A stretch of 64,000 nt of DNA from the NCBI GenBank assembly GCA_016188005.1, contig JACPIQ010000008.1, positions 256,509-320,508 on the forward strand, written 5' to 3'. Shown here one piece after another: positions 17,382-35,806 of the stretch. The stretch's first letter is position 1. Each line of letters opens with the position of its first letter. Below the pieces are notes generated by a model. The model did not search any database and was not told the DNA's origin. It saw only the letters and a list, made by a program, of their open reading frames with translations. The position numbers were made by a program, and so were the translations under genes. The stretch comes from Candidatus Rokuibacteriota bacterium. GTDB taxonomy: Bacteria > Methylomirabilota > Methylomirabilia > Rokubacteriales > CSP1-6.

Positions 17382-18514
17382 CGCGGGGTCCCATCCCTCC
17401 CGCGCCCGCAGAGCCCGGCATACAGGGCCGACAGCTCACGCGCGATGCCGGCGCCTGAGAAGCGCGACTGGCACAGGGCCCGGCCGGCCCCGCCGAGCCT
17501 GGCCCGGAGCCGGGCGTCGTCGACGAGCCGCCCGACGGCACACGCCAGGGGCAGGGGCTCCCCCGCTGGCACCAGCAGCCCCGTGGTCCCGTCCGAGAGG
17601 ACCTCGGGGACGACGCCGACGCGGGTGGCGACGACGGGCCTGCCCGCGGCCAGGTACTCGAAGAGGACGCGGGACATGCCGTCCGACTCGAGCGGTACGT
17701 AGAGCGCCACGTCGAAGGCCGCCATGGCGGTCTCGGGGCTCGGCTCGTCGCCGCGGAAGGACACGCGGTCGCCGAGCCCCGCCCGCTCCACCGCCGCGCG
17801 GACCGCGGGCTCCATCGCCCCTTGACCCACGAAGGCCAGCTGGAACCCTCGCCCCTCGGCAGCGAGCCGCGCCGCCGCGGCCACCGCCACCTCATGCCCC
17901 TTCATGACGCGAAAGCCACCCAGGAGCCCGATCAGCGGCCTGTCCTCCGCCAGTCCCAGCGAGCGACGCCACGGGCGCCCGTCCACGTCGGGGCGGAAGC
18001 GCTCGTGGTCCACCCCGCCCGGCAGCGCCACCACGCGCTCCGGGGCCGCCAGCCCCGCGGCAAGGTACTGGCTGCGGATGGCGCCGGTCACCGTCACGAC
18101 GAGGTCGGTGGCCTCCCGGTAGAGCCAGCGGTTGAGGGCATGCGGGCGGATCGGTTGGACGATGTGCCGGGTCCTGACCAGGGGGCGAGGAGTGGGCGAG
18201 ATGCGGTTCGCGAGGGCCGCCACCCAGTGCTCCTTGCCGCGATGAACGTGGACGACATCGGCGCGGCGCAACCCGTCCAGCACGCCCCGCAGGTCCCTCA
18301 GATCGTCGACCGGGCTCACGCCTCCGGCGAAGGGCAGCGTCTCGATGCGGCTCGCCCCGAGCCGGCGCGCGCGCTCGATGACCCGGGCCTCCGTGCCGCG
18401 ACGGCAGACTAGTGTCACCTCATGCCCCGCCCGCAGGAGCTCGGCGGTGATGCGCGCGGCCCAGTAGGCGTCCGAGGACCAGCCCCGACAGGACAGGAGC
18501 TGCAGCACTCTCAC
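17378..18514 (-). CDS. GT4 glycosyltransferase (array member 3)
   Basis: MRVLQLLSCRGWSSD...VPLESDGMSRVLFEYLAAGRPVV GT4 motifs. ATGA overlaps. Confidence 0.8.
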   Translation of the reverse strand: MRVLQLLSCRGWSSDAYWAARITAELLRAGHEVTLVCRRGTEARVIERARRLGASRIETLPFAGGVSPVDDLRDLRGVLDGLRRADVVHVHRGKEHWVAALANRISPTPRPLVRTRHIVQPIRPHALNRWLYREATDLVVTVTGAIRSQYLAAGLAAPERVVALPGGVDHERFRPDVDGRPWRRSLGLAEDRPLIGLLGGFRVMKGHEVAVAAAARLAAEGRGFQLAFVGQGAMEPAVRAAVERAGLGDRVSFRGDEPSPETAMAAFDVALYVPLESDGMSRVLFEYLAAGRPVVATRVGVVPEVLSDGTTGLLVPAGEPLPLACAVGRLVDDARLRARLGGAGRALCQSRFSGAGIARELSALYAGLCGRGRDGTPR

Positions 18515-19641
18515 GGCGACGGCGCCCGCCGCGAGAGGAGCCCGAGATAGATTGCTTCCACATCGGCGGCGTGCCGCGCGGGGCTGAACGACTCCTCGGC
18601 GCGGCGCCGCCCCGCCTCTCCCATGGCGCGGGCGCGCGCAGGCTCCGCCACGACCGCGCGCAGCGCCGCCGCCACCGACTCGGGACGCTCGTCGTCCACC
18701 AGCAAACCGGTGCTCCCGTGCACGATCGCCTCCGGCAGGGCGCCGAGCCGCCTGGCGATCACGGGGCAGCCTGCCGCCATCGCCTCGAGCGCAGCCCGGC
18801 AGGACTCGTCCGAGCCCGCCGCCATCAGCGCGAACACGTCGAGGGCCCGGAGGACGGCCGGAAGATCGGCGTCACGGTAGCCGGCGAACAGGACCCGGGA
18901 GCCGAGGCCGCGCTCGCGAACCAGCGCCTCGAGCCTCGGCCGTGCCTCCCCCTTCCCCACGAGCAGCAGCCGCGCCTCGGGGTAGTCCGCGAGCAGCCGC
19001 TGGAAGCCCAGGATCAGGAGCTCGTGTCCGCGGTCGTGGGCCAGCCGGGCCACGGATCCGATCACGGGAGCCGTGCCGAGGCCGAGCTCCGCGCGCACCG
19101 CCTTGCCGTCCGCGCCCGCGGCGAAGCGCGCCAGGTCCACCACCCCCCCCACGCGGAAGACGCGCGCGGGGTCCAGGGCGAGGTGCCGGCAGTGCTCCTC
19201 GATCTGACGGCTCACGGCGATCAGGGCATCGCTCTGCCGGTACAGCCACGTCGAGGGCCACGGCCGTCCCACCGCCCGCTGGTTGTGGAATGTCCTCACC
19301 AGCACCGCCCTCCCGCGACTCAGCAGCCCGAGCCAGTGATCGTGGGAGTGGTGGACGTGAACCACGTCGACCTGCTCCCGCCGCACCAGTCGCCGGAGGC
19401 GCAACACGTCGCCGACCATCGCCGCCGGACGGAACCTCGCCTCGAGGGACAGCCCGATCAGAGGCTCGATCCCCGCCTCGCGGGCCTTGGCCTCGAAGCG
19501 GTCGCCCGGGATGAGCGCCAGGAGCGCCCGATGGCCACGACCCTCGAGCCCCTTCACCAGGCGGATCACCGGGTCGGCGCTCCCCGTCCACCAGCGGTTG
19601 GCGCAGAGCTGGAGCACCGTCACCCGCCGGGATGCGCTCAT
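18511..19641 (-). CDS. GT4 glycosyltransferase (array member 4)
   Basis: MSASRRVTVLQLCANRWWTGSADPV...MAAGSDESCRAALEAMAAGCPVI. ATGA overlaps. Confidence 0.8.
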   Translation of the reverse strand: MSASRRVTVLQLCANRWWTGSADPVIRLVKGLEGRGHRALLALIPGDRFEAKAREAGIEPLIGLSLEARFRPAAMVGDVLRLRRLVRREQVDVVHVHHSHDHWLGLLSRGRAVLVRTFHNQRAVGRPWPSTWLYRQSDALIAVSRQIEEHCRHLALDPARVFRVGGVVDLARFAAGADGKAVRAELGLGTAPVIGSVARLAHDRGHELLILGFQRLLADYPEARLLLVGKGEARPRLEALVRERGLGSRVLFAGYRDADLPAVLRALDVFALMAAGSDESCRAALEAMAAGCPVIARRLGALPEAIVHGSTGLLVDDERPESVAAALRAVVAEPARARAMGEAGRRRAEESFSPARHAADVEAIYLGLLSRRAPSP

Positions 19642-20717
19642 GCCAGCACTTCTTCGTACAGGCCAAGCAGCCGCGAGATGGAGGTATCCCGCGAGAAACG
19701 CTCTCCCACCAGGGCCCGCCCGGCGCGCGCGCGCGCCGCAGCGGCCCCGGGGTCGGCCAGCACGGCCTCGACTGCGCGGGCCAGCGCCGGAGCATCCCCG
19801 GGGGGAGCCAGGAGCCCGGTGACGCCGTCCCGGATCAGCTCGGGGACCCCCCCAACGGCGCTGCCCACGACGGGGGTCCCCGCCGCGAAGGCCTGGAGAA
19901 GGGACTGGGGCACGCCCTCGGTGCGCGTCGAGGCCAGCACGAAGCAGTCCATGGCCGCGAGCAGCGGGGGCACATCGCGGCGGAACCCGGTGAAGAGGAC
20001 CGAGTCACCCAGGCCGCGCGCCTTCGCCAGTGATTCCACCCAGGCGCGGCGCCCTCCATCGCCTACCAGGAGGAGGCGCGCCGTCGGATGCTTCCCGCGG
20101 ACAAGACAGAAGGCCTCGAGCAGGACGTGGTGGCCCTTCGAGCCCCTGAACATGGCGACCGAGCCGATGACCGGACGAGAGAGCCCGAGCGACCTCGCCG
20201 CCTCTTCGCCCCCCTGGAGCCCCTCGAAGTCCTCGAGCCTCACCCCGGCCGGAATGGCGATCACCCTGTCGGGCGCCACGCCCGCCGCGATCACCACGGC
20301 CCGGACCGCCTCCCCGCTGGTGATCACGCGATCGGCCAGCCACTGGTACACGGGATTCAGCCCGCGGCGGATGGGGATGGACACGTGCCGGGTCCGCACC
20401 ACGGGCACCCGGGCCAGGCGCGCCGCCATCCCGGCGACCCACCCGTCGATGGAGCTGTGGGTGTGGACGATGCCGACATCCTCCCGGCGGATCAGCGCCG
20501 CGAGCCTGAGGACGGCCGGGAGATCCCATGCCCCGCGCATCCCCACCGCGACGGCCTGCAGGCCCCGCATCCGCGCGTGCTGGTGGAGGTGGCTCTCCGG
20601 CTGGCAGGCGAGGAGCACCCGCCACCCCCGCCCCACTGTGGCCTCGGCCTCGTCGAGGGTCCGGAGCTCCTGCCCGCCAAGGCCGCGCGAGGCCTCCGTG
20701 TGCAGCACGGTGTTCAC
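19638..20717 (-). CDS. GT4 glycosyltransferase (array member 5)
   Basis: VNTVLHTEASRGLGGQELRTLDEA...ASTRTEGVPQSLLQAFAAGTPVV. Trimmed to the GTG at 20717 (GTGA overlap with the upstream GT9 stop). Confidence 0.8.
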   Translation of the reverse strand: MNTVLHTEASRGLGGQELRTLDEAEATVGRGWRVLLACQPESHLHQHARMRGLQAVAVGMRGAWDLPAVLRLAALIRREDVGIVHTHSSIDGWVAGMAARLARVPVVRTRHVSIPIRRGLNPVYQWLADRVITSGEAVRAVVIAAGVAPDRVIAIPAGVRLEDFEGLQGGEEAARSLGLSRPVIGSVAMFRGSKGHHVLLEAFCLVRGKHPTARLLLVGDGGRRAWVESLAKARGLGDSVLFTGFRRDVPPLLAAMDCFVLASTRTEGVPQSLLQAFAAGTPVVGSAVGGVPELIRDGVTGLLAPPGDAPALARAVEAVLADPGAAAARARAGRALVGERFSRDTSISRLLGLYEEVLA

Positions 20718-21712
20718 GAAGCGATCGCCTCGCGCACGCGCTGCTCCACATCGGCCACCGTGATCGCCCGCATGCAGGGGTGGTCGATGGGGCACTCGGA
20801 GCGAAAGCACGGAGCGCAGGGCGCGCCCGGGCTGACGATCCGGGCCTGCGGCGAGCGCGGCGCGGTGCGCCGCGGGTCGGTGGGGCCGAAGAGCGTCACC
20901 GTGGGCACACCCAGGGCCGCCCCGAGGTGCGCCACGCCTGTGTCGCCGCTGACCAGGCAGCAGAGCCGCGAGAGGAGATGGGGCAGGAGCTCCGCCCGGT
21001 CGCGCCCTGCCAGCGACGGCGGGCGGGAGCGCGCCGAGGAGGCGATCTCCTGCCCGGCGGCAAGGTCGGCCGGGGCGCCGAGCAAGAGGGGCGCGAAGCC
21101 GCCGTCAGCCAGCGCATCGGCCAGGGCAGCATACGAGGACCCCGCCCATCGCTTCGCCCCTCCGCCAGCAGCGCCGGGATGCAATCCCACGAGCCGCGCC
21201 CGGCCCCGGAGCCCCGCCTCGGCGAGCAGGCTGTCCACTTCGGCCTCGGCCGGGGCCCGCGGGGCCAGGCGCCACGTCGGCCACTCGCCGGGAGTGTCCA
21301 CGCCGGCCGCCCGCACCAGCAACCGATACTCGTCCACCTGGTGGAGGCGCGGCGCCGGCAGCGGGAGCGCGTCGGTGAGCAACGGGCCACGCCCATCGCC
21401 GGCGAAACCGACCCTGCGGCGCGCGCGCCAGCGCCGCGCCGCGAGCGCTGACTCGAAGGAGTTGGGCAGCAGGAGCGCCAGATCCGCGGGCTCATCACCA
21501 AGGGCCCGCGCGAAGCGACGGCGGTCCACCCAGTGGCCGGGGTAGTCGAGCAGCAGGTCCGCGACGCCCTGGCCGGCGAGGAGCCGAGCCCAGCGGCCCA
21601 CGATGGCGATGCGCGCCCGGGGCTCCCCGACCCGCAGGGCGGAGAGGGCGGGCAGCGCCATGACGGTATCGCCAAGCCAGTTCGGAGCGCGCACCACGAT
21701 GACCGGGCCCAT
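20714..21712 (-). CDS. ADP-heptose:LPS heptosyltransferase (GT9, WaaF/WaaC family)
   Basis: MGPVIVVRAPNWLGDTVMALPAL...VSGDTGVAHLGAALGVPTVTLFGPT. ATG at 21712, 8 nt after the lpxK TAG. The 523-aa track ORF N-terminus is a read-through of lpxK. Confidence 0.8.
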   Translation of the reverse strand: MGPVIVVRAPNWLGDTVMALPALSALRVGEPRARIAIVGRWARLLAGQGVADLLLDYPGHWVDRRRFARALGDEPADLALLLPNSFESALAARRWRARRRVGFAGDGRGPLLTDALPLPAPRLHQVDEYRLLVRAAGVDTPGEWPTWRLAPRAPAEAEVDSLLAEAGLRGRARLVGLHPGAAGGGAKRWAGSSYAALADALADGGFAPLLLGAPADLAAGQEIASSARSRPPSLAGRDRAELLPHLLSRLCCLVSGDTGVAHLGAALGVPTVTLFGPTDPRRTAPRSPQARIVSPGAPCAPCFRSECPIDHPCMRAITVADVEQRVREAIAS

Positions 21713-21720
21713 GACGCGAT

Positions 21721-22845
21721 CTAGCTCGCCGCGACAGAGCCGCCTAGCGCTCGCCCCAGCACCTCGTGCCATGCCGCGTGACCCGGGTCCAGCACCATTC
21801 TGACGCTCAAGACCCACACAGGCCGCGGCGGCGGGGGCAGCCCTCTGAGGCGGACCCAGTCCTTCTCGGTCGTGATGAGGCCCTCGGCGCCGGCGACATC
21901 GGCCTGCCGCACCAGCGCGGAGAGATCCTCCGCCGCGTACCAGTGGTGATCCTGGAACTCGACGAAGCCGGCCAGTGCTACGCCGAGGCAGGCGAGAGTC
22001 TCTCGGAAGCTGCGGGGCGAGGCCAGCCCCGCGAAGCCGAGCAGCCGGCGCCCCTGCACCACATGCGGCGGGAGCCGCTCGCCCCCGCCGGTGTCGCGCA
22101 CGCCCACGACCTCGTAGCCGCCCCCGACGACCGGCGCCGTGCAGCCGTGGCGTTCCAGCATTCGCGGGATGCCGGATGCCGTCATGCGCCGACCTCCGTT
22201 GGTGACGACGACCAGGTGCGCCCGCCTCAGCGCCCCCAGCGGCTCGCGCAGCGGTCCCGCGGGGAAGAGCCGGCCATTCCCCCACGGAGCCCTGGCGCTC
22301 ACCGCCACCACCTCCACGTCCTTCGCGATGGTCCGGTTCTGGAAGGCGTCATCCAGGACGATGACCGAGGCGCCCAGCGCCTCCAGCGCGAGCCGCCCCG
22401 CCTCGTAGCGGTTCTCGCCCACCACCACGGGCATGCCCGGAAGCCGCTCGGCAAGGAGCACCGGCTCGTCCCCCGCCGCCCGCGGGCCGAGCCGGATCCC
22501 CGCGCGGTCGGCCACCACCTGCACCCCGCGGGTGTCGCGGCGGTAGCCGCGGCTCACGACAGCGGGCCGGGCCCCCAGCTCTGCGAGAGTCAGGGCCGCC
22601 AGCTCCACCAGGGGGGTCTTCCCGCTCCCGCCCACTGTCAGGTTACCGATGGAGATCACGGGGCATGGCAAGCGTCCGGTGCGGAGAACGCCCAGATCGT
22701 AGAGGCGCTCGCGAGCAGCGAGCGCGCAGCGGTAGCCCACGGCGAGCCCGCCCAGCCCCGCAGCCAGGACGGGATGCGTGCCCTCCTCCCAGGCGCGCAG
22801 GAGCCAGCTCTCCGGGTCGCTGCGCCTGGCCCGCGCCTCACTCAT
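21721..22845 (-). CDS. lpxK: tetraacyldisaccharide 4'-kinase
   Basis: ...ISIGNLTVGGSGKTP is the LpxK P-loop, with full-length homology. ATG start. Confidence 0.85.
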   Translation of the reverse strand: MSEARARRSDPESWLLRAWEEGTHPVLAAGLGGLAVGYRCALAARERLYDLGVLRTGRLPCPVISIGNLTVGGSGKTPLVELAALTLAELGARPAVVSRGYRRDTRGVQVVADRAGIRLGPRAAGDEPVLLAERLPGMPVVVGENRYEAGRLALEALGASVIVLDDAFQNRTIAKDVEVVAVSARAPWGNGRLFPAGPLREPLGALRRAHLVVVTNGGRRMTASGIPRMLERHGCTAPVVGGGYEVVGVRDTGGGERLPPHVVQGRRLLGFAGLASPRSFRETLACLGVALAGFVEFQDHHWYAAEDLSALVRQADVAGAEGLITTEKDWVRLRGLPPPPRPVWVLSVRMVLDPGHAAWHEVLGRALGGSVAAS

Positions 22846-24145
22846 GACGCGCCGCCGGCACCTGGGCGGAAGGCTTCGGGTACAGGTACCGGGCGATCAG
22901 ATCGAGGGTCGCCTGCACCGCGCCCTGCCGGCCCACCACCGCCTGGAAGGCCGCCTCCCCCATGCTCTTGGCAAGCCCAGGATCGTCGAGGAGGCTCTGC
23001 GCCGCGCGCTCCAGCTCGGCCCCGTCACGCACCACCAGGGCGCCGCCCGCCGTCGTGAGGAGCTCGGCGCTCTCGCGGAAGTTGCCCGTGTGAGGTCCGA
23101 AGAGCACCGGCTTCATCCGGAGTGCCGGCTCGAGCATGTTGTGCCCGCCCCTCGGCACCAGGCTTCCACCGACGAAGACCAACTCCGCCACGCGGTAGAG
23201 CTGCGCCAGCTCTCCGACGGTGTCGAGCACGATCACTGCCCGGCGTCCCCGCTTCCGCGGCAGCTGGCTCCGGCGAACCGTCACGAGCCCGCGGGACGCC
23301 AGGAGACGCTCCACTTCGGGCACGCGCTCTGGGTGGCGGGGCGCCAGCAGCAGGGTCAGCTCCGGGAAGGCCGCCGAGAGCCGCTGGAACGCCTCGGCAA
23401 CGGTCTCCTCCTCGCCAGGATGCGTGCTGCCGGCGATCCAGACGCGCTCCCCGGGGGCAAGACCCAGGAGTCGCTCCCACAGATCCCGCGCGCCGGGGTC
23501 CTCGGGCTCCTGGTCGGCCTTGAGGCTCCCGGTGACCACGACGCGTTCAGGTGGCGCCCCCAGCGCGATGATCCGCCGTGCGTCCTCCTGGGACTGCATG
23601 GCGAAGATCGAGATCTGCGCGAGGACCCTGCGCATGACGACGCGCACTCTCCGGTAGCGGCGGAAGGAGCGATCCGAGATCCGCCCGTTGGCGATCATGC
23701 CCGGCACCCCGCGACGCCCCAGCGCGCGGAAGAAGTTGGGCCAGAGCTCGGTCTCCATGCCGATGAAGAAGCACGGACGGACGCCCCGGAGCGCGCGGCC
23801 CACGGGCCCGGGCAGGTCCAGCGGGAAGTAGCGGTGCGTCGCCAGCGTCGCGAGCCGACCCTCCACGATCCGTGCGCCGGTGGGCGTCACGGTGGTGAGC
23901 ACCACCGCCAGCTCGGGCCAGCGCCGCCGGATGCCCTCCACCAGCGGAATCGCGGTGACCGACTCGCCCACGGACACCGCATGGATCCAGCAGCGGGGCT
24001 CAGGCGGAAGCCCCCGCCCGATACTCCCCAGGCGCTCACCGAGATGGGCCGGGTGGCCGCGGCCCGCGAGGCGTCGGGCCAAGAGCACGGGCGCGTAACC
24101 CAGGAGCGCCGCCGACAACGCCACCGAGTAGAGGGCGTGGATCAC
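22838..24145 (-). CDS. waaA: 3-deoxy-D-manno-octulosonic acid (Kdo) transferase
   Basis: ...IHAVSVGESVTAIPLVEGIRRRWP...HPGEEE... is a WaaA/KdtA GT30 fold. Trimmed to the GTG at 24145 (GTGA overlap with the DUF374 gene stop). Confidence 0.85.
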   Translation of the reverse strand: MIHALYSVALSAALLGYAPVLLARRLAGRGHPAHLGERLGSIGRGLPPEPRCWIHAVSVGESVTAIPLVEGIRRRWPELAVVLTTVTPTGARIVEGRLATLATHRYFPLDLPGPVGRALRGVRPCFFIGMETELWPNFFRALGRRGVPGMIANGRISDRSFRRYRRVRVVMRRVLAQISIFAMQSQEDARRIIALGAPPERVVVTGSLKADQEPEDPGARDLWERLLGLAPGERVWIAGSTHPGEEETVAEAFQRLSAAFPELTLLLAPRHPERVPEVERLLASRGLVTVRRSQLPRKRGRRAVIVLDTVGELAQLYRVAELVFVGGSLVPRGGHNMLEPALRMKPVLFGPHTGNFRESAELLTTAGGALVVRDGAELERAAQSLLDDPGLAKSMGEAAFQAVVGRQGAVQATLDLIARYLYPKPSAQVPAARHE

Positions 24146-24795
24146 GCGGCAGCCTCCTCGTCGGCGCGCCAGCTCACCGCGCGAAGGGCGGCCTCGATCT
24201 CCTTGCGCGCGGCCTCCTGCGCCTCCCGTCCGCCCCGGCGCGGGACGCGGATGGGTTCCCCGAAGCGCACCACGCACCGGGAGAAGGGACGGGGAATCCG
24301 GAACTCGTCCCACGAGGCCAGGCGCCACTCCGACGAGGTCGCCACCGCCAGCGGAACGACGGCGGCGCCGCTCAGCGCCGCCAGCGTCACGATCCCGGGC
24401 TTGACGATCTCGGGGGGCCCCTTGGGGCCATCAGGCACGATCACTACGCTCCACCCTTCTTGCAGTGCGCGCACGAGTTCCCGGAGCGCCCCGGCGCCAC
24501 CGCGGCTCGACGAGCCCCTCGCAGCGCTGAGCCCGAAGCGCGCCAGGAAGCGCGCCAGGATCTCCCCGTCCCGGGAGCGGCTCACGAGCACCCGCAGTCG
24601 CCGCCCGTGATAGAGGTGCGGCAGCAGGAGCACCCGCGAATGCCAGACGGCGAAGACCAGCGGATCGCGCCGGTTCCACAGGGGCTCCATGGAGCTCTCC
24701 TCGCGCCGGATCGTCAGCGTTTGCGCGAGGAGCCGCACGGCCGCCGCGCCGAGCGCCGGACCCAGCGCCAGCATCAGCCGGGCCGGCCCCCTCAT
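24142..24795 (-). CDS. DUF374-family protein, LpxJ-like putative lipid A late (secondary) acyltransferase
   Basis: 217 aa, ...FAVWHSRVLLLP...GWSVVIVPDGPKGPP... matches the DUF374/lysophospholipid-acyltransferase-like family to which LpxJ belongs. It is translationally coupled between lpxB (ATGA) and waaA (GTGA). Confidence 0.65.
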   Translation of the reverse strand: MRGPARLMLALGPALGAAAVRLLAQTLTIRREESSMEPLWNRRDPLVFAVWHSRVLLLPHLYHGRRLRVLVSRSRDGEILARFLARFGLSAARGSSSRGGAGALRELVRALQEGWSVVIVPDGPKGPPEIVKPGIVTLAALSGAAVVPLAVATSSEWRLASWDEFRIPRPFSRCVVRFGEPIRVPRRGGREAQEAARKEIEAALRAVSWRADEEAAA

Positions 24796-25952
24796 GATCC
24801 GCCCGCCGCTCGCAGCACGGCCAGCGCCGCCCGCCGGCCAACGCCGGGCTCGCCGAGCCTGTCCCTGAGCTCGGCAAAGGCCAGGCGCTGGGCCGCGGCG
24901 GCCTCAGGATCCGCCAGCAGCCGTTGGGCCTCGGCCGCGAGCCGCTCGCCGGAGACGGCCTGCTGCAGGATCTCGGGGACCACACTGCGTCCGGAGACGA
25001 TGTTCGGGAGGCTGATCCACTGGACGCGGATCAGGAGGCGGGAGAGGGCTGCGGTGAGGCGCGACACCCGGTAGCAGACCACCATGGGCCCCCCGAGGAG
25101 CGCCGCTTCGAGCGTGGCTGTCCCCGAAGCCACCAGCAGCGCATCGGCGGCTGCCATGATCTCGTGGGTACGTCCCTCGACCACCTCGATCGGCGGCGAC
25201 CCTGGCGCCCGGGCTCCGAGCGCTCGGTCCAGGAGCTGTCGGTCCACGGCGGGCGCCAGTCCCAGGAGGAAGCGGCGCGAGCTGTCGGCAGCCGCCAGGT
25301 GGCGCGCGGCCCCGAGCATCGGCGGGAGGAGCCGGGCGATCTCCTCTCGCCGGCTCCCGGGAAGGATCCCCACCACTGGCACCTGCCCGCCCAGCCCGAG
25401 CCGCCTGCGCGCCTCCTCGCGCCCCAGTCCCAGCGGGAGCACGTCGAGCAGCGGGTGGCCGACGAACTCGACGGCAATGCCGGCCCCCTCGTAGAGCGCC
25501 CGCTCGAATGGGAAGACCGCGAGGACGCGACTCGAAAGCCTGGCCATGAGCCGCAGCCGCCCGCGGCGCCACGCCCAGAGCTGCGGCGGGATGAAGTAGA
25601 CGACCGGAACCCCCGCCCGGCGGGCCTGGCGCGCGAGCCGCAGGTTGAACTCGGGGAAATCGATGAGGACCAGCGCGCGCGGGCGCTCGCGTCTGAGCCG
25701 GCGCACGAGGGCGCGGTAGGCGCCGTAGAGCTCGGGCAGCCGGCTCACCGCCTCGGTGGCCCCCACGACGGCACGCCGCGTGGGATCGGCGATCAGTTGC
25801 ACGCCGGCCGCAGCCATCCGGGCCCCGCCCATCCCGAAGAGGCGTAGTCCCGGCGCCAGTTCGCGCAGCGCCAGGCAGAGCGTGCCGCCGTGCAAGTCCC
25901 CCGAGGCTTCTCCCGCCGACAGCATGATCGCCCCGGTGTCAGGCCAGGTCAT
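24792..25952 (-). CDS. lpxB: lipid-A-disaccharide synthase
   Basis: MTWPDTGAIMLSAGEASGD aligns with the E. coli LpxB N-terminus (IALVAGETSGD). The start at M25 of the track ORF is at 25952; an alternative ATG lies at 25925. Confidence 0.85.
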   Translation of the reverse strand: MTWPDTGAIMLSAGEASGDLHGGTLCLALRELAPGLRLFGMGGARMAAAGVQLIADPTRRAVVGATEAVSRLPELYGAYRALVRRLRRERPRALVLIDFPEFNLRLARQARRAGVPVVYFIPPQLWAWRRGRLRLMARLSSRVLAVFPFERALYEGAGIAVEFVGHPLLDVLPLGLGREEARRRLGLGGQVPVVGILPGSRREEIARLLPPMLGAARHLAAADSSRRFLLGLAPAVDRQLLDRALGARAPGSPPIEVVEGRTHEIMAAADALLVASGTATLEAALLGGPMVVCYRVSRLTAALSRLLIRVQWISLPNIVSGRSVVPEILQQAVSGERLAAEAQRLLADPEAAAAQRLAFAELRDRLGEPGVGRRAALAVLRAAGGS

Positions 25953-26757
25953 CCTGCCCCTCATCGATGCCGACGAGGGCGATGCTCGCCCTCTCCGCGA
26001 GCCGGATCGCCGTCTCCCGCTCAACGAGGAGCACCTTCCCCCGCGCCACGGCCAGCACGGCGGCGCCGCCCGCCGCCATGACCTCCAGCGTCGCAGGTCC
26101 GATGGTCGGGATGTCGAAGCGGTAATCGTGGTCCGGGGCCACCGCCTTGACCACGACGGCGCCGGGTCCTGCCAGCGCGGTTCCCCGTCTGATGGTCTCG
26201 TCGGTGCCTTCGGCAGCCTCCACGGCCACGGTCACCCCGCGGGAGCGGACCAGGGTTTGGCCGATCCCCTGCGCAGCGAGGCTCCGGGCGAGCCGCCACC
26301 CGGCGCGGACCTCCTCCCACTGCTCCCCGGAGGGGATGCGGCCGGCGAGCACGTCGGCCGTGAACAGCAGCGGCCCCAGGAAGAGGCGTTGATCGAGGAC
26401 CTGCACCCCCATGGCCCCCAGCGTGGCGACGACCATCTCGGCCAGGGCCGCGTCGGAGAGCCCGCGGTCTGCCAGGCGCCGGCCCGCATCATCAGCCCCA
26501 CGGACTTGCGAGAGAGCGGACTGCTTCCAGAACTTCCCCACGAACAGCGCGGCCTCGATCCGCTGCGCCGCGACCTCGGCGAGGACCGACCGGATATCCG
26601 TGAGGCGGCAGGACACAACCCGGTCGGCGAACTCGGCGAGACCGGGGGCATCATCGAAGGCGAAGGCCACGATGCGCCATCCCTGCCGGCGGGCTTCGGC
26701 GGCCGCGCAGCCGGGGAGCACCCCGGCCCCGGCCATCACGCCGAGGCAGCGCTCCAC
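25939..26757 (-). CDS. lpxI: UDP-2,3-diacylglucosamine hydrolase LpxI (DUF1009)
   Basis: ...VMAGAGVLPG...GVTVAVEAAEGTDETIRRG...DIPTIGPATLEV aligns with Caulobacter LpxI. A GTG at 26757 or an ATG at 26736 are the candidate starts. Confidence 0.8.
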   Translation of the reverse strand: MERCLGVMAGAGVLPGCAAAEARRQGWRIVAFAFDDAPGLAEFADRVVSCRLTDIRSVLAEVAAQRIEAALFVGKFWKQSALSQVRGADDAGRRLADRGLSDAALAEMVVATLGAMGVQVLDQRLFLGPLLFTADVLAGRIPSGEQWEEVRAGWRLARSLAAQGIGQTLVRSRGVTVAVEAAEGTDETIRRGTALAGPGAVVVKAVAPDHDYRFDIPTIGPATLEVMAAGGAAVLAVARGKVLLVERETAIRLAERASIALVGIDEGQDDLA

Positions 26758-27767
26758 GGAAGATCCTCCGGCCAGGCGGTTTCTCCCCGACCCTCGCGGA
26801 TCATCCGCTCGACCTCCAGCGCCACGGCCAGGGAGCGCAGGTCCTCCGCCTCGGCCAGCTCCGCGCGCCCCGTGGCCTGGGCGGCTCGGGCCGTCGAGAT
26901 GAGGTGGCGCAGCTCCAGCTTCAAGGGGTTGTCCTTGTGGACGAAGAGATGCTCGACGAACGACGCCTGCCGATAGCGGATCGCCTCGCGGTTCACGCTG
27001 TACTCCTGCGCCGCCCGCCGGTGGATCTGGATGTCCTGGTCCAGGTAGTCGAGCGTGATGTAGGCGTCAGGCTGCGTGATGGCGAGGGTCCGGATCTTCT
27101 CCTCCGTGGCGCGGCTGGCCGTGATGGTGGCCATGGTGCCCGAGTCGAAGACCACTTGCACGTTGGCCACATCCGCCAGCCCGGAGACCACCGACGAGCC
27201 CACCGCCGTCACCTTGCGGGGCTCGCCGTCCACCAGCCCCAGGACGATGTCGATGTCGTGGATCATGAGGTCCATGACCACCGAGTCGTTCTGCACGCGC
27301 GGGGCGAAGGGGCCCAGACGCCGTGACTCGATCAGGATCGGCCGCTCGACGATCTTGCGGAGCTCCTGCACGGCGCCGTTGAAGCGCTCCACGTGCCCAA
27401 CGTGGAGCACGCTCCCGTGGTGCCGCGCGACCCGGAAGAGCTCCTTGGCCTCCTCGAGCGTGGTGGTCATGGGCTTCTCGACGAGGACGTGGATCCCCGC
27501 CTCTAGGAGATCGCGGGTGACCTCGAAGTGGCGATGTGTGGGAACGGCCACGGTCGCCACGTCCACGAGGCCCCGCAGCTCGCGGTGGTCCTGGAAGGCG
27601 CGCGTGCCGTAGCTGGCGGCCAGCTGCCGGGCGCGCTCCCTGTCGACGTCCACAATTCCCGCCAGCTCGGCCTCCCACAGCTCCATGAAGGCCAGGATGT
27701 GGTACTGCCCCATGTGCCCGGCGCCCACCACGCCCGCGCGGATCTTCGGCTCGACGACCGGCCTCAC
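26736..27767 (-). CDS. Gfo/Idh/MocA-family NAD(P)-dependent oxidoreductase inside the lpx cluster (GnnA-like candidate)
   Basis: [24 protein letters not shown] is a Rossmann motif, and ...VEKPM... is the GFO_IDH_MocA consensus. GTG start overlapping the lpxA TGA (GTGA). Confidence 0.7.
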   Translation of the reverse strand: MRPVVEPKIRAGVVGAGHMGQYHILAFMELWEAELAGIVDVDRERARQLAASYGTRAFQDHRELRGLVDVATVAVPTHRHFEVTRDLLEAGIHVLVEKPMTTTLEEAKELFRVARHHGSVLHVGHVERFNGAVQELRKIVERPILIESRRLGPFAPRVQNDSVVMDLMIHDIDIVLGLVDGEPRKVTAVGSSVVSGLADVANVQVVFDSGTMATITASRATEEKIRTLAITQPDAYITLDYLDQDIQIHRRAAQEYSVNREAIRYRQASFVEHLFVHKDNPLKLELRHLISTARAAQATGRAELAEAEDLRSLAVALEVERMIREGRGETAWPEDLPWSAASA

Positions 27768-28588
27768 GCCGTTGCCTCCTCGTCCCCGCCGCCGCCCGCC
27801 GCCGCGCTCCGGGCCGGACCCGCCACGATGCCGCGCCGGGAGCCCTCGATGAACTCCAGCATCCTGGCCACCACCGGCCGGTCACCCATCTCCGCCTTGA
27901 GACGGGCCGCCGCCGCAGCCGTCGCGAGCCCCGAGCGGTACAGGATCCGGAAGGCCTCCTGCGCCTGGCGGCGTGCGCCGGCGTCCAGCCCGCCGCGGCG
28001 CATGCCCACCACGTTGACGGTGCGCGCGACGGCGGGAACGCCGTCGGCCACGATGAAAGGCGGCACATCCTGCGTCACCTTGGAGCAGCCACCGACATAG
28101 GCGAACGTCCCCAGCCGGGTGAAGGGGTGGACCCCGGAGAGCCCCCCGACGGTGGCCCGGTCCTCCACCGTGACGTGGCCCGTGAGCCCCGCGGCGTTGA
28201 TGATGATGACGTGGTCACCGATGACACAGTCGTGGGCCACGTGACAGCTCGCCATGAGGAGACAGTGCGACCCGATGCGCGTGTCGTGCCCCTCCCGGGT
28301 CGCGTGGTGGATCGTGACGTACTCCCGGATCACCGTGCCGTCGCCCACCGAGACTCCCACCGGGAGGCCCGGCCGGTACTTGAGGTCCTGGGGCGCAGCC
28401 CCCAGGATGGCGCCGTGGCCGACGCGGCAGCGGGCGCCGATGCGCACGCGGCCCTCCAGCACCGCATGCGCGCCGATCTCCGTGTCGTCCCCTACCTCGA
28501 CCTCTGGCCCGATCACCGTTCCAGGCCCCACGCGCACGCCGGACCCCAGGCAGGCCCGGGGGTCCACGTGAGCCGCCGGGTGGATCAC
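27764..28588 (-). CDS. lpxA: acyl-ACP--UDP-N-acetylglucosamine O-acyltransferase
   Basis: [44 protein letters not shown] shows hexapeptide repeats plus an LpxA C-terminal helical domain. GTG start, ATGA-style overlap with lpxD. Confidence 0.9.
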
Positions 28589-29625
28589 GCGTGCCCCCGC
28601 TCCAGCTCCGCCAGCCGCTTCTCAACACCGCGGAGCCGGCGCACGAGGTCGGGCAGCATGCGCTCGGCGGCCCAGATGCGCCTGGTCTCGGCGCTGGGAC
28701 GACTTGGCGTCCCGCTCCACACCTCGCCCGCAGGGATGTCGCTCGGCACGCCGGACTGGCCGGTCAGGATTGCGCCGTCTCCGACCGTGACGTGGTCGGC
28801 GATCCCGACCTGGCCCGCGAGAACGGCGCGGCGGCCGATGCGGCAGGAGCCCGAGATCCCCACCTGGGCTACCAGGATCACGTCTTCCCCGACATCGCAG
28901 TTGTGGCCGACCTGGACCAGATTGTCAACCTTGCTCCCGCGCCCGATCACCGTGTCGCCCAGGGTCCCGCGGTCGACGGTGGAGTTGGCGCCGATCTCCA
29001 CGTCGTCCTCGATGCGCACGCCGCCCACCTGAGGAATCTTCTGGTGGCCGGTACCGTCGAAGGCATAGCCGAATCCATCGGCCCCGATCACGGCGCCGGG
29101 GTGGATGATCACGCGGTCGCCCACCTGGACCCCGTCACGGATCACCACTCGCGGGTAGAGGACCACGTCGTCGCCCACGCGCGCGCCGGCTCCCAGGAAG
29201 GCGAGTGCCCCGATCCGGGTCCGGCGGCCCACCCGGGCCCCGGTCTCGACCACCGCGAAGGGGCCCACGGCCGCGCTCGGATCGACCTGCGCCCCCTCTG
29301 CCACCAGCGCCAGCCGATGGATGCCCGGGACATGCGGGGGCTCGGGGTGGAAGAGGCGCAGGAGGGTGATCAGCGCAGCCTGGGCGGAGGCCACTCGGAG
29401 CACCGCCCCGGGAAGACCCGCCGCCTCTGCGGGGGCCACCACCGCGGCCGCCCGGCTCGCCGCGGCCAGCCGCTGGTAGCGTGGACCCACGAGGAACGAC
29501 ACCTCATCGGGGCCGGCGCTCTCCAGCGGGGCCACGCCCCGAACTGCAAGCGCCGGATTGCCCTCCAGGGTGGCGCCGAGCGCCTCGGCGAGCTGACCGA
29601 GCGTGAAGGGGCCGCCCTGAGCCAT
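28585..29625 (-). CDS. lpxD: UDP-3-O-acylglucosamine N-acyltransferase
   Basis: LpxD N-terminal domain plus a left-handed beta-helix (hexapeptide repeats). ATG start abutting the skp TAG. Confidence 0.9.
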
Positions 29626-30192
29626 CTACTTCCTGACCTTCCTCGACTCTTCGTCGAAGACGCGGATGATCTCCTCGGTGAGGTCCGCCTCGGGGGCGCC
29701 GTAGATCACCGCCGCGCCCCGCGCGTCGACGATCATGGCGTACCCCTTCTCTTTGCCGAACCGGTGCACTGCCGCCGTGATCTCCCTGAGCACCCTCGCC
29801 GAGAGGTCCTGATCCTTCTTCTGTAGCTCCTTCTGGAGATCGTCCACGAGCCGGCGCACGTCCCGGACCTTGCGCTCGAGCGTGTCCTGCTTCTCCTTGC
29901 GGACCTCCCCGGAGAGGAGCTGCCCCTTCTTCTCCAGCCCGTCGCGGAGCTTCTCGAGCTCTCCGCGGTGGGCGTCCACCTGCTTCTGCATCGCCGCCTT
30001 CTCCCGCTCCAGCTGCTCCCGCGCGGCCACGCCGGCTGACGACCGGGCGAGCACGCGCTGCACGTCCACGAAGGCCACGCGCGCGGCCGGCGCGGACTGC
30101 GCGAGCCCGGGAGTCGCGCCCCACCACGCGCCAGCAAGCCAGCCCCCCGTCAGCACCCAGAGCGGCAGGAAACCCTTCAAGACCGTGCGCAT
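29626..30192 (-). CDS. skp: periplasmic chaperone Skp/OmpH
   Basis: 188 aa with a signal peptide and a long coiled-coil, Lys/Glu/Arg-rich body. Canonical bamA-skp-lpxD order. Confidence 0.8.
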   Translation of the reverse strand: MRTVLKGFLPLWVLTGGWLAGAWWGATPGLAQSAPAARVAFVDVQRVLARSSAGVAAREQLEREKAAMQKQVDAHRGELEKLRDGLEKKGQLLSGEVRKEKQDTLERKVRDVRRLVDDLQKELQKKDQDLSARVLREITAAVHRFGKEKGYAMIVDARGAAVIYGAPEADLTEEIIRVFDEESRKVRK

Positions 30193-30210
30193 CTGCTCAC
30201 TCCTCCCTGC

Positions 30211-32490
30211 TCAGAACGGTGAGCCCACCGAGAAGTGGAACTGGCCGAACTTCTCCCCGGTTCGCCGATCGAGATTGACGCCATAGTCCACCCTGAGGGG
30301 TCCGAAGGGCGATGCCCACCGGAGGCCGAGGCCCGCCGCATGGCGCAGGTCCAGCGCGTCGAACTTGTCCCCCGCGGCGATGTCGGGACCCCAGACGTTG
30401 CCGACGTCGTAGAAGAGGGCGGCCCGGACGTTGAAGGGGAGCGGGACGAGGTACTCCACGTTCCCGAGGAGCTGGCTGTTGCCGCCGATCCTGGTCCCAC
30501 TGCTGTCCTCCGGGGAGATCGCGCGGCTCTTCCGGCTTCGGATGGAATTGGGGCCGCCCAGGTAGAACCGCTCGAAGAGGGGCACCGGCTCGTCTGACCA
30601 CCCGAAGGCGTAGCCCCCCTGGAGCCGCCCGCTCAGGACGTGATCGAGCCACAGCGAACGGAAGTAGGCGGTGCTGGCGGCGGCCCGCACGAACTTGCTG
30701 TCGCCGAAGCCGACTCCTGCGAAGTCCAGCCCGATGCTCGAGGCGCCGCCTCGCGTGGGCTCGAACACGCTGTCGCGCGTGTCCCGGGAAAGGCTCCCGC
30801 CGACGAGCGAGGTGAGGCGCTTGCCTTCCTCGCTGAGCAGGTTCGTGCTGGCATTGCCCGCGATGTCGGAGATCTCATCCTCGGTGACGCGGTAGACGAA
30901 GCCCCACCGCGAGTAGTCGCCCAGCGGATGGCCGAGCCGGATGTCGCCCCCGAGCGAGTTGATCGTGTACTCGGGGTAGACGCGGCGGTTGTTGAACAGG
31001 TCGAAGCCGGCGGCCAGCGGCCTGTCGAAGAGCCACGGCTCGGTGAAGCCGATCGTGCCCTGCTGGGTGCTGGCGCCGGCGCGCAATCGCAGGAACACCT
31101 CCCAGCCACGTCCGAGGAAGTTGCGCTGCGACAGATCCACGGTGCCGATGAAGCTGTCCTGGGAGCTGTAGCCGCCACCGATGGAGAAGAGCCCCGTGGG
31201 CTTCTCCGTGACCTCGATGTTGACGACGATCTTGTCCTTTGTCGCGCCCGGCGCCGTGGTCGTCTTGACCTGGTCGAAGTACCCGAGGTTGTTCAGCTTT
31301 TGCCGGGCCCGCTCCAGGGCCTTCGTCGTGAAGAGATCCCCCTCCTGCATCGGGATCTCGCGCCGAAGGATCTTCTCCTCGCTGCGGACGTTGCCCGAGA
31401 TGTTGATCCGCTCCACGAACACCTCGGGCCCCTCGGCGATCTCGAAGGCGATGTTCACCCGCCGTGTCGCCGCGTCCTGGGTCGCCGTGGGATTCACGTC
31501 GGCCGACGCGCGGCCGATGACGCCGTACAGGTCCTGGATGCCCTTGACGCTCTCGCGGAGCTTCGACCGGGAGAAGACCTCGTTGGTCTGGAGCTTGATG
31601 CGCCGCCGGATCTCCTCGGTCGGCAGGACGTTGTTCCCGGTCACGTCCACGCCGCCGACCCTGAACTGCGGTCCCTCCACCACCACGATGCGCACGGTCA
31701 CCCGGGCCCTGGCCCTGTCCAGCTCGGTCGCCGACGACTCGACGCGCGCCTGGGTGTAGCCGTGGTCGTTGTAGAGGGCGACGATGCGGTCGGCGTCGTC
31801 GTCGAGCTTCTGGCGCTGGACGGTGCCGCGGAGGATCCAGAACTGCCGCTCCTGGGTCGCCATGACGGCCTTGATCTGTTTCGGCTTGAGCCCGTGGGCC
31901 CCCTCGATCACGATCTCGTCGATGGTGATCTTGCGGCCCTCGGCGATCCGGAAGACCACCGTCACGTCGCCGTCGGGGAGCTTCTCGGCATCGGGACCGA
32001 TGCTGACCTCGAAGTACCCCTCCTCCTCGTAGTGCTCCTTCAGCCGCTCGGTCGCCCGGTTGACCTCCACCGGGTTGTAGACGCTGCCGAGCTTCAGGTC
32101 GATCTTCTCCTGCAGCGCGGTGGTGTCCACCTTCTTGTTGCCCACGAACTGGATGTCGCGCACGAAGGGGCGCTCGACCACGACGAAAGTCACCTTCACG
32201 CCGCCCTCGAAATCCTCGACTCGCATCTGCACGTCGTCGAAGAAGCCCAGCGCGAAGACCGCCCGGATGTCCTCGGCGAGCCTGGCCGGCTGGAACTCCC
32301 CCCCCACTCGCGTCGTCACGCGCCCCAGGACGACGGCCTCCTGGACGCGGCGGTTTCCCTGCACCGCGAGCTCCTTCACGACGATGGGCCGCGGGGCGCG
32401 GGGCGGCGCCTGCTGGGCCGCGGCCGGACTCGGGCCCAGGAGCGCGGAGACAAAAAAAATGGAGAGAATCACTCTCTCCAGGGCGGTCAT
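30211..32490 (-). CDS. bamA: outer membrane protein assembly factor BamA (Omp85)
   Basis: MTALERVILSIFFVSALLGPSPAAAQQ signal peptide, POTRA repeats, and a C-terminal 16-strand barrel ending ...HFSVGSPF. Trimmed to the ATG at 32490. Confidence 0.9.
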   Translation of the reverse strand: MTALERVILSIFFVSALLGPSPAAAQQAPPRAPRPIVVKELAVQGNRRVQEAVVLGRVTTRVGGEFQPARLAEDIRAVFALGFFDDVQMRVEDFEGGVKVTFVVVERPFVRDIQFVGNKKVDTTALQEKIDLKLGSVYNPVEVNRATERLKEHYEEEGYFEVSIGPDAEKLPDGDVTVVFRIAEGRKITIDEIVIEGAHGLKPKQIKAVMATQERQFWILRGTVQRQKLDDDADRIVALYNDHGYTQARVESSATELDRARARVTVRIVVVEGPQFRVGGVDVTGNNVLPTEEIRRRIKLQTNEVFSRSKLRESVKGIQDLYGVIGRASADVNPTATQDAATRRVNIAFEIAEGPEVFVERINISGNVRSEEKILRREIPMQEGDLFTTKALERARQKLNNLGYFDQVKTTTAPGATKDKIVVNIEVTEKPTGLFSIGGGYSSQDSFIGTVDLSQRNFLGRGWEVFLRLRAGASTQQGTIGFTEPWLFDRPLAAGFDLFNNRRVYPEYTINSLGGDIRLGHPLGDYSRWGFVYRVTEDEISDIAGNASTNLLSEEGKRLTSLVGGSLSRDTRDSVFEPTRGGASSIGLDFAGVGFGDSKFVRAAASTAYFRSLWLDHVLSGRLQGGYAFGWSDEPVPLFERFYLGGPNSIRSRKSRAISPEDSSGTRIGGNSQLLGNVEYLVPLPFNVRAALFYDVGNVWGPDIAAGDKFDALDLRHAAGLGLRWASPFGPLRVDYGVNLDRRTGEKFGQFHFSVGSPF

Positions 32491-32533
32491 GAGGCCGATC
32501 GTCCTGTCGTGTGGCGAGGCAGCGTCCGGCCGC

Positions 32534-34981
<2,448 letters not shown>

Positions 34982-35122
34982 TTGGGGCCCTCGCTTCCGG
35001 GATCGGTTAGCGCTCGACCGCTACCATGTAAGCCATCCCAAAGTATAACGCCCTGCCCTGTCCCCTCATAGGGTTTTCTTCCCTAGCGGCCGTCCCCGGC
35101 GCGCCCGGGCGGCTCGCAGCGC

Positions 35123-35806
35123 TCACGGCCAGGCCACCGCGCGGCCGTCCACCAGCCGGTAGCCACGGTCCGCCTTGCGGGCCAGGTCGTGGTTGTGCGT
35201 CGCGATGACGAAGCTGAGCCCGTGCTCGGCCTGAAGCCGCAGGAAGAGATCCCAGATGACCTCGCTCGTCTTCGGATCCAGGTTCCCCGTGGGCTCGTCG
35301 GCCAGGATGAGGCGCGGTGCCCCGACGAGCGCGCGCGCGATCGCCACCCGCTGCTGCTCGCCGCCGGACAGCTCCCCGGGCCGGTGGGCGAGGCGGTCCG
35401 AAAGGCCGACCTCGGCGAGCGCCGCCGCGGCCCGCGCGCGCGCCTCGCTCCACGACGCCCGCTGGAGCAGTGCCGGCATCATGGCGTTCTCGAGCGCCGT
35501 CATCTCCCCGAGGAGATTGTAGAACTGGAAGACGTAGCCGACCCCCGTCCGCCGCAGCCGCGCCAGCGCGCTCTCCGAGCGCGAGAAGACATCCTCGCCG
35601 GCGAAGAGCACGCGCCCGCCCGAGGGCCGGTCCAGCGCGCCGATGAGGTGCAGGAGCGTGGACTTGCCGACGCCGGAGGCACCGACCACCGCCACACTCT
35701 CTCCCGGGCCCACGGTGAGGGTTACGCCCCGCAGCACCCGGATCACCTCTGGACCCACCCGGTACTCCTTCTCCAGCTCCTCGGCGACGAGCAGCGGCTC
35801 ACTCAT
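35123..35806 (-). CDS. lolD: lipoprotein-releasing system ATP-binding protein
   Basis: ABC ATPase with Walker [10 protein letters not shown], signature [15 protein letters not shown], and LolD-family length. Confidence 0.85.

Follow-up and report, generated by a model that had tools for sequence, protein, structure and literature searches.

Lipid A built on 2,3-diamino-2,3-dideoxyglucose (GlcN3N) is, in the species that have been studied, more resistant to hydrolysis and acts as a weak agonist of Toll-like receptor 4 (TLR4). The enzymes GnnA and GnnB, which belong to the synthesis of its amino sugar, were described from Acidithiobacillus, where the genes lie in the order bamA-skp-lpxD-fabZ-lpxA-gnnA-gnnB-lpxB. 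In Desulfuromonas versatilis (AP024355, L004), the order is lysS-lolCE-lolD-bamA-skp-lpxD-fabZ-lpxA-gnnA-gnnB-lpxB-msbA-DUF374-waaA-lpxK-GT9. Here, we analyze a stretch of 64,000 nucleotides from a Candidatus Rokuibacteriota bacterium (assembly GCA_016188005.1, contig JACPIQ010000008.1, positions 256,509 to 320,508; hereafter the window), which carries most of the Raetz pathway for making lipid A in a core at 21721-29625 and, within it, a Gfo/Idh/MocA-family oxidoreductase gene in the position of gnnA. Rokubacteria are abundant in soil and groundwater; to our knowledge, they have no cultured member and their envelope chemistry has not been described. The operon yields a testable prediction for the lipid A of these organisms, namely a 2,3-diaminoglucose backbone with amide-linked acyl chains, made by way of LpxI and an LpxJ-type late acyltransferase. 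We put the probability of the full chain of steps up to GlcN3N lipid A at roughly 0.7.

The minus-strand order in the window is bamA-skp-lpxD-lpxA-Gfo/Idh/MocA-lpxI-lpxB-DUF374-waaA-lpxK, followed by heptosyl- and glycosyltransferase family 4 (GT4) transferases (Table 1). As in Acidithiobacillus (L002) and D. versatilis, the gnnA-like gene stands directly after lpxA. In Acidithiobacillus ferrooxidans, fabZ lies between lpxD and lpxA, gnnB follows gnnA, and there is no lpxI, whereas the window has no fabZ at this place, no gnnB, and an lpxI after the gnnA-like gene. In five other loci carrying both genes (L005, L006, L010, L195, and L196), lpxI precedes gnnA instead of following it. The D. versatilis operon is almost collinear with that of the window; it has the fabZ, gnnB, and msbA that the window operon lacks and is without lpxI and the ClpB-like gene. 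All components come from described families, and the operon architecture rearranges ones already present in public genomes. The novelty lies in the phylum, which had no previous lipid A chemistry, and in an aminotransferase that has apparently been moved and replaced.

Identity of the Oxidoreductase

The protein encoded directly after lpxA contained Rossmann and Gfo/Idh/MocA domains (PF01408, E 7.9e-34, and PF22725), and the glycines of its GxGxxG motif (G15, G17, and G20) were invariant in a 36-sequence alignment. Among solved structures, the best sequence match was 7BVJ/7BVK at an E-value of 6.4e-50, and the next match followed at 4.5e-14. Structure 7BVJ is the UDP-GlcNAc (uridine diphosphate N-acetylglucosamine) 3-dehydrogenase GnnA of A. 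ferrooxidans (PDB entry 7BVJ; also a preprint). The window protein is ~35% identical to this enzyme over the full length and ~45% identical in the core, and it is 38.7% identical to the GnnA of D. versatilis. An AlphaFold (AF2) model computed with the 36-sequence alignment had a predicted local distance difference test (pLDDT) value of 87 and a predicted template modeling (pTM) score of 0.85. The top five Foldseek matches were GnnA chains of 7BVJ/7BVK (E 1.4e-31, template modeling (TM) scores 0.83/0.90, 34% identity), and the next match came at 1.8e-23 with 22% identity. The window protein exceeds A. ferrooxidans GnnA in length by 30 aa, and its AF2 model shows a loop of low confidence at 255-267 as well as a tail at the C terminus.

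Phylogenetic placement, which the sequence-only reading had proposed as a check, was carried out with a neighbor-joining (NJ) tree (a distance rather than a maximum-likelihood method) of 48 sequences, 312 columns, and 100 bootstraps. The Rokubacteria proteins fell inside a clade that also comprises A. ferrooxidans GnnA as well as proteins encoded within the lpx clusters of Desulfuromonas, Magnetococcales, Thiohalorhabdus, and numerous contigs from metagenomes (78% support). Gfo/Idh/MocA enzymes encoded beside DegT-family aminotransferases outside lpx clusters formed a separate clade (95%), to which the window oxidoreductase is 22-28% identical. These include WbpB/WbpE-type Gfo/Idh/MocA-DegT pairs from O-antigen and glycan loci, which perform the same chemistry, 3-oxidation of a nucleotide sugar and then transamination dependent on pyridoxal 5'-phosphate (PLP); the window enzyme lies outside the WbpB-type clade and is embedded in lpx rather than glycan genes.

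Residues told the same way. The window protein matched 53 of the 60 columns conserved at ≥90% in the GnnA clade and 15 of the 19 in the clade-specific subset, with H23, R128, P143, E147, P153-F154, R157, M168-I169, D173, and R219 among the latter. The family-wide residues were also present, specifically E97-K98-P99 with the EKP lysine and H170-D171 of the MIHD motif, and both motifs are shared with A. ferrooxidans GnnA. The best NCBIfam match was the archaeal UDP-GlcNAc 3-dehydrogenase model (221.8 vs. a cutoff of 450). Because the sequence rank, the fold rank, the clade, the signature residues, and the best NCBIfam match agree, we consider it very probable that this protein belongs to the GnnA clade and functions in lipid A synthesis. 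The sequence-only reading, which had recognized the genomic signature of GnnA, was borne out by each of these lines and by the position after lpxA.

Partner Aminotransferase

The sequence-only reading held the GnnB partner to be either missing or encoded elsewhere. The absence of a copy from the operon and the window stood; the second half of the claim was resolved in part, through a conserved, non-canonical DegT encoded beside msbA elsewhere. An unlinked partner has precedent, as three of the five non-Rokubacteria loci sampled through GnnA (L005, L006 from Magnetococcus, and L007) had no adjacent gnnB, and these were scattered within the GnnA clade of the NJ tree. Likewise, Granulibacter bethesdensis produces lipid A with GlcN3N; its GnnA reportedly shares 44% identity with that of Acidithiobacillus, and the candidates for gnnB, unverified and with 37-39% identity to GnnB, are not linked to gnnA (PMC8036547). 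Three further loci (L010, L195, and L196) have the order lpxA-lpxI-gnnA-gnnB-lpxB. We also take gnnA and gnnB to be adjacent in Campylobacter jejuni.

Canonical GnnB was sought with the sequences of the Acidithiobacillus and Desulfuromonas loci, which are 56% identical to each other. Metagenomes were scanned with an alignment of the two sequences, and species-representative genomes with a guanine-cytosine (GC)-biased, two-motif DNA pattern; the stretches listed (600 and 120, respectively) cover the sampled part of the collections, so all counts are lower bounds. The DNA pattern required GC-rich codons and both motifs, and a divergent copy would slip through it. Among the matches listed, none was a canonical GnnB from Methylomirabilota; at least 26 canonical copies came from other taxa with high GC. 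None of the best 80 metagenome matches combined Rokubacteria-like GC with a GnnB-like sequence, a result that is uninformative about absence; the high-GC matches (L074, L067, L073, and L086) were another DegT type. As the 64 kb and the sampled collection scans make up what was examined, the absence of canonical GnnB from this genome is suggested, not demonstrated. The motifs EDCAQxxG and FSFxPSKNL were considered as GnnB-specific and rejected, being present in DegTs of Actinobacteria, Cyanobacteria, and others. Consequently, what the pattern retrieved in Methylomirabilota was a different DegT and not canonical GnnB.

This different DegT was found in at least seven Methylomirabilota/Rokubacteria genomes (L116, L123, L146, L167, L182, L183, and L203), with 73-92% identity among them. 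Its best PDB matches were 7B0D, DesV, QdtB, 7N63, and WbpE, presumably all sugar C3-aminotransferases, and this ranking parallels that of A. ferrooxidans GnnB; in this respect the Rokubacteria DegT resembles the WbpE-type partners. In metagenomes, it had the profile of a core gene, with 7,751 homologues at E < 1e-30, the best 120 of them ≥80% identical, and this abundance and conservation resemble the pattern of the GnnA-like protein, which has thousands of metagenomic homologues at ≥78% identity. The gene was always part of a flavin reductase-DegT-GT4-ATP-binding cassette (ABC) exporter cluster (L123:3388-7442, L146:436-4412, L183, L182, L116, L208:9552-13959, and, from Binatia, L112). The best NCBIfam match of the exporter was MsbA (TIGR02203, 563 bits vs. 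a cutoff of 602), and it is 45-46% identical to the msbA products of the Desulfuromonas and L005 lpx operons. Relative to Desulfuromonas, the window operon is thus without an aminotransferase and msbA, and in Rokubacteria both functions are apparently encoded as neighbors at another conserved locus.

Given the resemblances above, the phylum-conserved DegT beside GT4 and msbA is our candidate for the transamination partner of the GnnA-like enzyme, a pairing that we propose tentatively and at somewhat less than even odds. The same guarded standing applies to the evolutionary scenario in which canonical gnnB was lost from the lpx operon in Rokubacteria, and apparently in Binatia, and the non-orthologous DegT conserved with GT4 and MsbA may have taken its place. 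If true, the GlcN3N branch is split over two loci, and a further conserved glycolipid dependent on GT4 might draw on this amino sugar as well. Confirmation of the DegT partner would make this a non-orthologous replacement within a well-studied pathway; otherwise, the work amounts to careful annotation and not to a discovery.

Two side observations concern this aminotransferase family. The nearest outgroup of the Rokubacteria DegT was found in clusters of a non-GnnA Gfo/Idh/MocA enzyme, DegT, glycosyltransferase family 2 (GT2), and LAB_N (PF07578), at L096:539-3778, L115:194-3477, and L105:65-2438; these clusters look like an amino-sugar modification system of the polyprenyl-phosphate type. Separately, DegT-GT4-msbA genes that share 84-95% identity with their Methylomirabilota counterparts occurred on L147 (Verrucomicrobiia) and L108 (Dormiibacterota) and as P0286, P0316, and P0365. 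The names attached to those contigs and proteins span Verrucomicrobiia, Dormiibacterota, Bathyarchaeia, and Deferrimicrobiaceae, and the occurrence of such genes under unrelated phylum names is probably due to mis-binning in public metagenome-assembled genomes (MAGs).

Proposed Pathway and Alternative Explanations

The following sequence of steps is modeled on the established Raetz pathway and on the work on Acidithiobacillus GnnA and GnnB. The predicted activity of the GnnA-like enzyme is the oxidation of C3 of UDP-GlcNAc, with NAD+ as the acceptor. A PLP-dependent, DegT-family aminotransferase encoded elsewhere, most likely the phylum-conserved, C3-type DegT of the flavin reductase-DegT-GT4-msbA cluster, would convert the 3-keto sugar to UDP-GlcNAc3N. 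LpxA would attach the first hydroxyacyl chain to the 3-amino group (or to the 3-hydroxyl group if UDP-GlcNAc is also accepted), an unlinked LpxC would deacetylate the product, and LpxD would then N-acylate position 2. LpxI, not LpxH, would free the lipid X analogue, LpxB would condense it, and LpxK would phosphorylate the 4' position. 3-Deoxy-D-manno-oct-2-ulosonic acid (Kdo) would be added by WaaA and a secondary acyl chain by the DUF374/LpxJ enzyme, and the heptosyl- and GT4 transferases would build the core. The expected lipid A would have GlcN3N in all or part of its backbone and carry as many as four primary acyl chains in amide linkage.

Several observations weigh against this route to GlcN3N lipid A. 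No DegT_DnrJ_EryC1 protein was found among the ~65 open reading frames (ORFs) scanned across the 64-kb window, just as the sequence-only reading had stated; the only aminotransferase there is of class I/II (5740-6936) and sits inside a pheA-tyrA-aroA cluster. Because gnnB lies beside gnnA in 21 of the 26 genomes sampled through GnnB (among the matches listed), the lack of gnnB by gnnA here is a true departure from the norm. The Methylomirabilota DegT is 39-43% identical to GnnB, with a mean identity of 40.6% to GnnB vs. 40.9% to unrelated DegTs. Its distant relatives (L096, L115, and L105; 51-57% identical) pair with Gfo/Idh/MocA enzymes from another clade than GnnA; they were considered as support for a pairing with GnnA, and none was gained from them. 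One DegT copy, P0242 (MBI2527597.1, Candidatus Rokubacteria), is numbered 2,672 accessions after the MBI2524920-928 series of the window and is probably from the same MAG, as judged by accession proximity alone. Given the tight link to GT4, the DegT could serve a core sugar or that of another glycan. The window LpxA showed no preferential similarity to any of the solved LpxAs, including 3HSQ, which we take to be the UDP-GlcNAc3N-selective LpxA of Leptospira, and its sugar preference is not readable from these comparisons. Finally, a literature search returned no work on Rokubacteria lipopolysaccharide (LPS), its biochemistry, or the lipid A structure in this phylum.

Some of these points would fit a genuine GnnA-like enzyme in a lineage that has no GnnB-type step for lipid A, with the 3-keto or 3-amino sugar passing to another glycoconjugate (for example, via DegT-GT4) or with the gene being a relic beside a glucosamine (GlcN) lipid A. 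The operon lacks gnnB, and the place taken by gnnB in other lineages is filled by lpxI; Methylomirabilota contributed no canonical GnnB to the matches listed and at least seven genomes with the other DegT type, which is tightly coupled to a GT4 glycosyltransferase. A relic does not behave in this way: the conservation of the gene throughout the phylum is 78-100%, and translational coupling joins it to lpxA at one end and to lpxI at the other. As for a diverted sugar, contexts without gnnB do not form a separate functional branch and are scattered in the GnnA clade, whose sole established role is the synthesis of GlcN3N lipid A, and the DegT also adjoins a homologue of the lipid A exporter. We regard a lipid A pathway without such a step as unlikely.

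Less likely still is that a canonical GnnB orthologue lies elsewhere in the genome and was missed, the DegT-GT4-msbA aminotransferase having nothing to do with the lipid A backbone. The visible 64 kb belong to a multi-megabase genome, both scans covered a sampled part of their collections, a divergent copy may escape the GC-biased pattern with its two motifs, and Granulibacter offers unlinked gnnB candidates. In the sampled genomes, the same pattern matched at least 26 canonical GnnBs of other taxa with high GC and reached at least seven Methylomirabilota genomes through the other DegT type, yet the matches listed held no canonical copy from that phylum, and the best 80 metagenome matches held none with Rokubacteria-like GC plus a GnnB-like sequence. 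The idea of the oxidoreductase as a generic sugar or inositol dehydrogenase of the Gfo/Idh/MocA family, placed next to lpx genes by chance, is effectively refuted. It could draw on the family-level domains that Pfam gives, on the score of the UDP-GlcNAc 3-dehydrogenase model below its cutoff, and on weak matches to inositol dehydrogenases; against these stand 36 orders of magnitude in E-value between GnnA and any other solved Gfo/Idh/MocA protein, the agreement of fold ranking, clade, and signature residues on GnnA, the 4-nt overlaps, and the phylum-wide synteny. The GlcN3N route, with its aminotransferase encoded away from the operon, is the reading that we retain.

LpxI, LpxJ-Family, and Core Raetz Enzymes

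LpxJ, formerly named DUF374, carries out 3' secondary acylation in Helicobacter pylori, C. jejuni, and Wolinella succinogenes and can act before LpxL and before Kdo transfer (PMC6148475). In the Rickettsia typhi enzyme, six residues are essential (W60, H61, D86, D132, W172, and D173), and their mutation abolishes activity (PMC6148475). The DUF374 protein of the window belongs to the same family, PF04028 (97.5 bits, cutoff 26.8), and has equivalents of all six residues, W51-H52 (FAVWHSR), D76 (SRSRDGE), D122 (VPDGPKGP), and W161-D162 (ASWDEF), which were matched by motif and spacing and not by alignment to the Rickettsia sequence. The spacing of these residues is 24/46/39-40, vs. 25/46/40 in R. 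typhi LpxJ. The HX4D motif was absent from the protein, and no NCBIfam model matched it. The gene sits between lpxB and waaA, directly upstream of waaA-lpxK, as in Desulfuromonas and L010. These features support the assignment to the LpxJ family made in the sequence-only reading and a predicted role as a late acyltransferase. The protein is very distant from the described LpxJs in sequence, and its acyl-chain choice, 3' position, and Kdo-independence are predictions only.

The LpxI of the operon, also named in the sequence-only reading, contained both domains of this enzyme (PF17930, LpxI_N, 1.7e-14; PF06230, LpxI_C, 4.5e-37) and aligned end to end with Caulobacter crescentus LpxI (4GGM/4J6E; residues 2-266 against 4GGM, E 1.5e-12). 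Identity was low, and the motifs of the catalytic region were shared; the Asp of the R-x-D-x-PTIG motif, presumably the D225 that was mutated in 4J6E, was kept. Caulobacter, as we understand it, also makes lipid A of the GlcN3N type. The score against the NCBIfam equivalog NF047836 was 68.9 bits, under the cutoff of 400; because this model is narrow, the low score indicates a distant protein and not a different one. The only Metallophos protein in the window (41259-42116) was considered as LpxH or LpxG and rejected, as it matched neither model. Its gene overlaps with lnt and nusB at their ends, and the product is of the calcineurin-like phosphoesterase type.

LpxA, LpxD, LpxB, and LpxK all scored above curated equivalog cutoffs. 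Among the ~65 ORFs, there was no match to the FabZ, LpxC, LpxH, or LpxL/M families. The sequence-only reading had suggested seeking gnnB together with these genes in the rest of the genome; the 64-kb window held none of them, and for gnnB the wider collections gave no Methylomirabilota copy among the matches listed.

Operon Organization and Conservation

Gene identities were obtained from Pfam and NCBIfam scans and cross-checked against the gene calls on public contig L001 (GCA_016192485.1), which is 99.8% identical to the window over 17725-32997. The genes named in the sequence-only reading were recovered on the minus strand with the coordinates it had given. The window has a GC content of about 72% and the majority of its genes on the minus strand, where the region from 11.5 to 38.6 kb is a single long, translationally coupled envelope operon. 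The oxidoreductase has the same sequence as NCBI proteins listed under Candidatus Rokubacteria bacterium. The NCBI protein for skp in the window is MBI2524928, and the proteins of L001, which is from a near-identical MAG, form the MBI31054xx series.

Table 1. Features of the envelope operon in the window (positions are those of the 64,000-nt stretch).
Feature	Coordinates	Strand	Basis
lysS	37040-38602	-	Pfam, NCBIfam
lolC/E-like permease	35799-37091	-	Pfam, NCBIfam
lolD-like ABC ATPase	35123-35875	-	Pfam, NCBIfam
ClpB/ClpA-like AAA+	32534-35020	-	Pfam, NCBIfam
bamA, 759 aa by public gene call (ORF open up to 32721)	30211..32490	-	TIGR03303 635 bits, cutoff 297; Omp85 and 5 POTRA domains; start from L001
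skp/ompH chaperone	29626..30192	-	PF03938 E 1.7e-30; stop abuts lpxD start, 0 nt gap
lpxD, UDP-3-O-acyl-glucosamine N-acyltransferase	28585..29625	-	TIGR01853 355.5 bits, cutoff 242.5; NCBI MBI2524927.1
lpxA, UDP-GlcNAc (or UDP-GlcNAc3N) acyltransferase, GTG start	27764..28588	-	TIGR01852 284.5 bits, cutoff 231; PDB LpxA matches E 5e-59
gnnA-like, predicted UDP-GlcNAc 3-dehydrogenase (Gfo/Idh/MocA), 343 aa, GTG start	26736..27767	-	7BVJ match, fold, tree, residues; NCBI MBI2524925.1
lpxI, UDP-2,3-diacylglucosamine pyrophosphatase	25939..26757	-	PF17930 and PF06230; full-length alignment to 4GGM
lpxB, lipid A disaccharide synthase, 386 aa, ATG at 25952 (public gene call)	24792..25952	-	TIGR00215 301.4 bits, cutoff 190
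DUF374/LpxJ family, predicted late acyltransferase, 217 aa	24142..24795	-	PF04028 E 3.4e-28; six LpxJ residues
waaA, Kdo transferase, 435 aa	22838..24145	-	PF04413 E 1.5e-61; NF004388 392 bits; start from L001 call
lpxK, tetraacyldisaccharide 4'-kinase, 374 aa	21721..22845	-	TIGR00682 195.2 bits, cutoff 92; NCBI MBI2524920.1
GT9 heptosyltransferase II-like	20714..21712	-	TIGR02195 152.6 bits, cutoff 134.6; L001 gene call
Five consecutive GT4 genes, LPS core	19638-20717, 18511-19641, 17378-18514, 16251-17435, about 15139-16230	-	Glycos_transf_1 and Glyco_transf_4 (Pfam); overlapping junctions
gmhB-like haloacid dehalogenase (HAD)	14524-15135	-	Pfam; start approximate
pfkB kinase	about 13514-14530	-	Pfam; start approximate
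Cytidylyltransferase	13051-13536	-	Pfam; start approximate
Heptosyltransferase I	11936-12982	-	Pfam; TIGR02193 211.8 bits, cutoff 185; start approximate
GT2	about 11564-11935	-	Pfam; start approximate

From skp to the GT4 genes, all junctions are 0-nt abutments, short overlaps, or an 8-nt gap. The sequence-only reading described lpxD as fused to lpxA with an ATGA overlap and no fabZ. The two are separate, complete ORFs; the overlap of 4 nt was correct, its sequence being GTGA and including the GTG start of lpxA, and fabZ is indeed missing between them. The translational coupling of the oxidoreductase gene to lpxA, also claimed there, was seen as a second GTGA overlap. Further downstream, the oxidoreductase gene and lpxI overlap by 22 nt, lpxI and lpxB by 14 nt, lpxB and DUF374 by ATGA, DUF374 and waaA by GTGA, and waaA and lpxK by 8 nt.

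On L209 and L210, which are also from Rokubacteria, the same gene order was found, including the upstream lysS-lolCE-lolD-clpB-like genes. As this order is shared where the oxidoreductase is only 78-80% identical, the block is a conserved operon at the level of the phylum and not a peculiarity of one genome. The block had been described as atypical in the sequence-only reading; the loss of fabZ and the gene order are real, but the atypicality did not hold, given the conservation across Rokubacteria and the near collinearity with D. versatilis. The arrangement lpxD-lpxA without fabZ was found in other lineages as well (L012 and L014). In a Rokubacteria lineage with a 78%-identical GnnA, L210 (8546-11817) and L211 carry skp-lpxA-gnnA-lpxI in an operon without lpxD, which indicates that lpxD is mobile within the cluster.

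Further observations were made on individual genes of the window. The ClpB/ClpA-like protein, a double AAA+ protein encoded between lolD and bamA, scored 1020 bits vs. the ClpB equivalog cutoff of 1232; its gene is kept at this place in L209 and L210 and is absent from the collinear Desulfuromonas operon. Compared with L001, lpxK carries 66 additional bp (22 aa), inserted in frame at 22103-22167. A tandem duplication was tested as its origin and rejected; the insertion may reflect population variation or an assembly difference. The genes for heptose supply (13051-15135) lie inside the operon, between both heptosyltransferases, and comprise a separate pfkB kinase, a cytidylyltransferase-like protein, and a HAD phosphatase (split hldE plus gmhB). 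Elsewhere in the window, at 57681-60236, an 851-aa fusion joins a sugar-1-phosphate nucleotidyltransferase, a hexapeptide domain, and a phosphoglucomutase/phosphomannomutase, and it may contribute to the supply of nucleotide sugars for the envelope.

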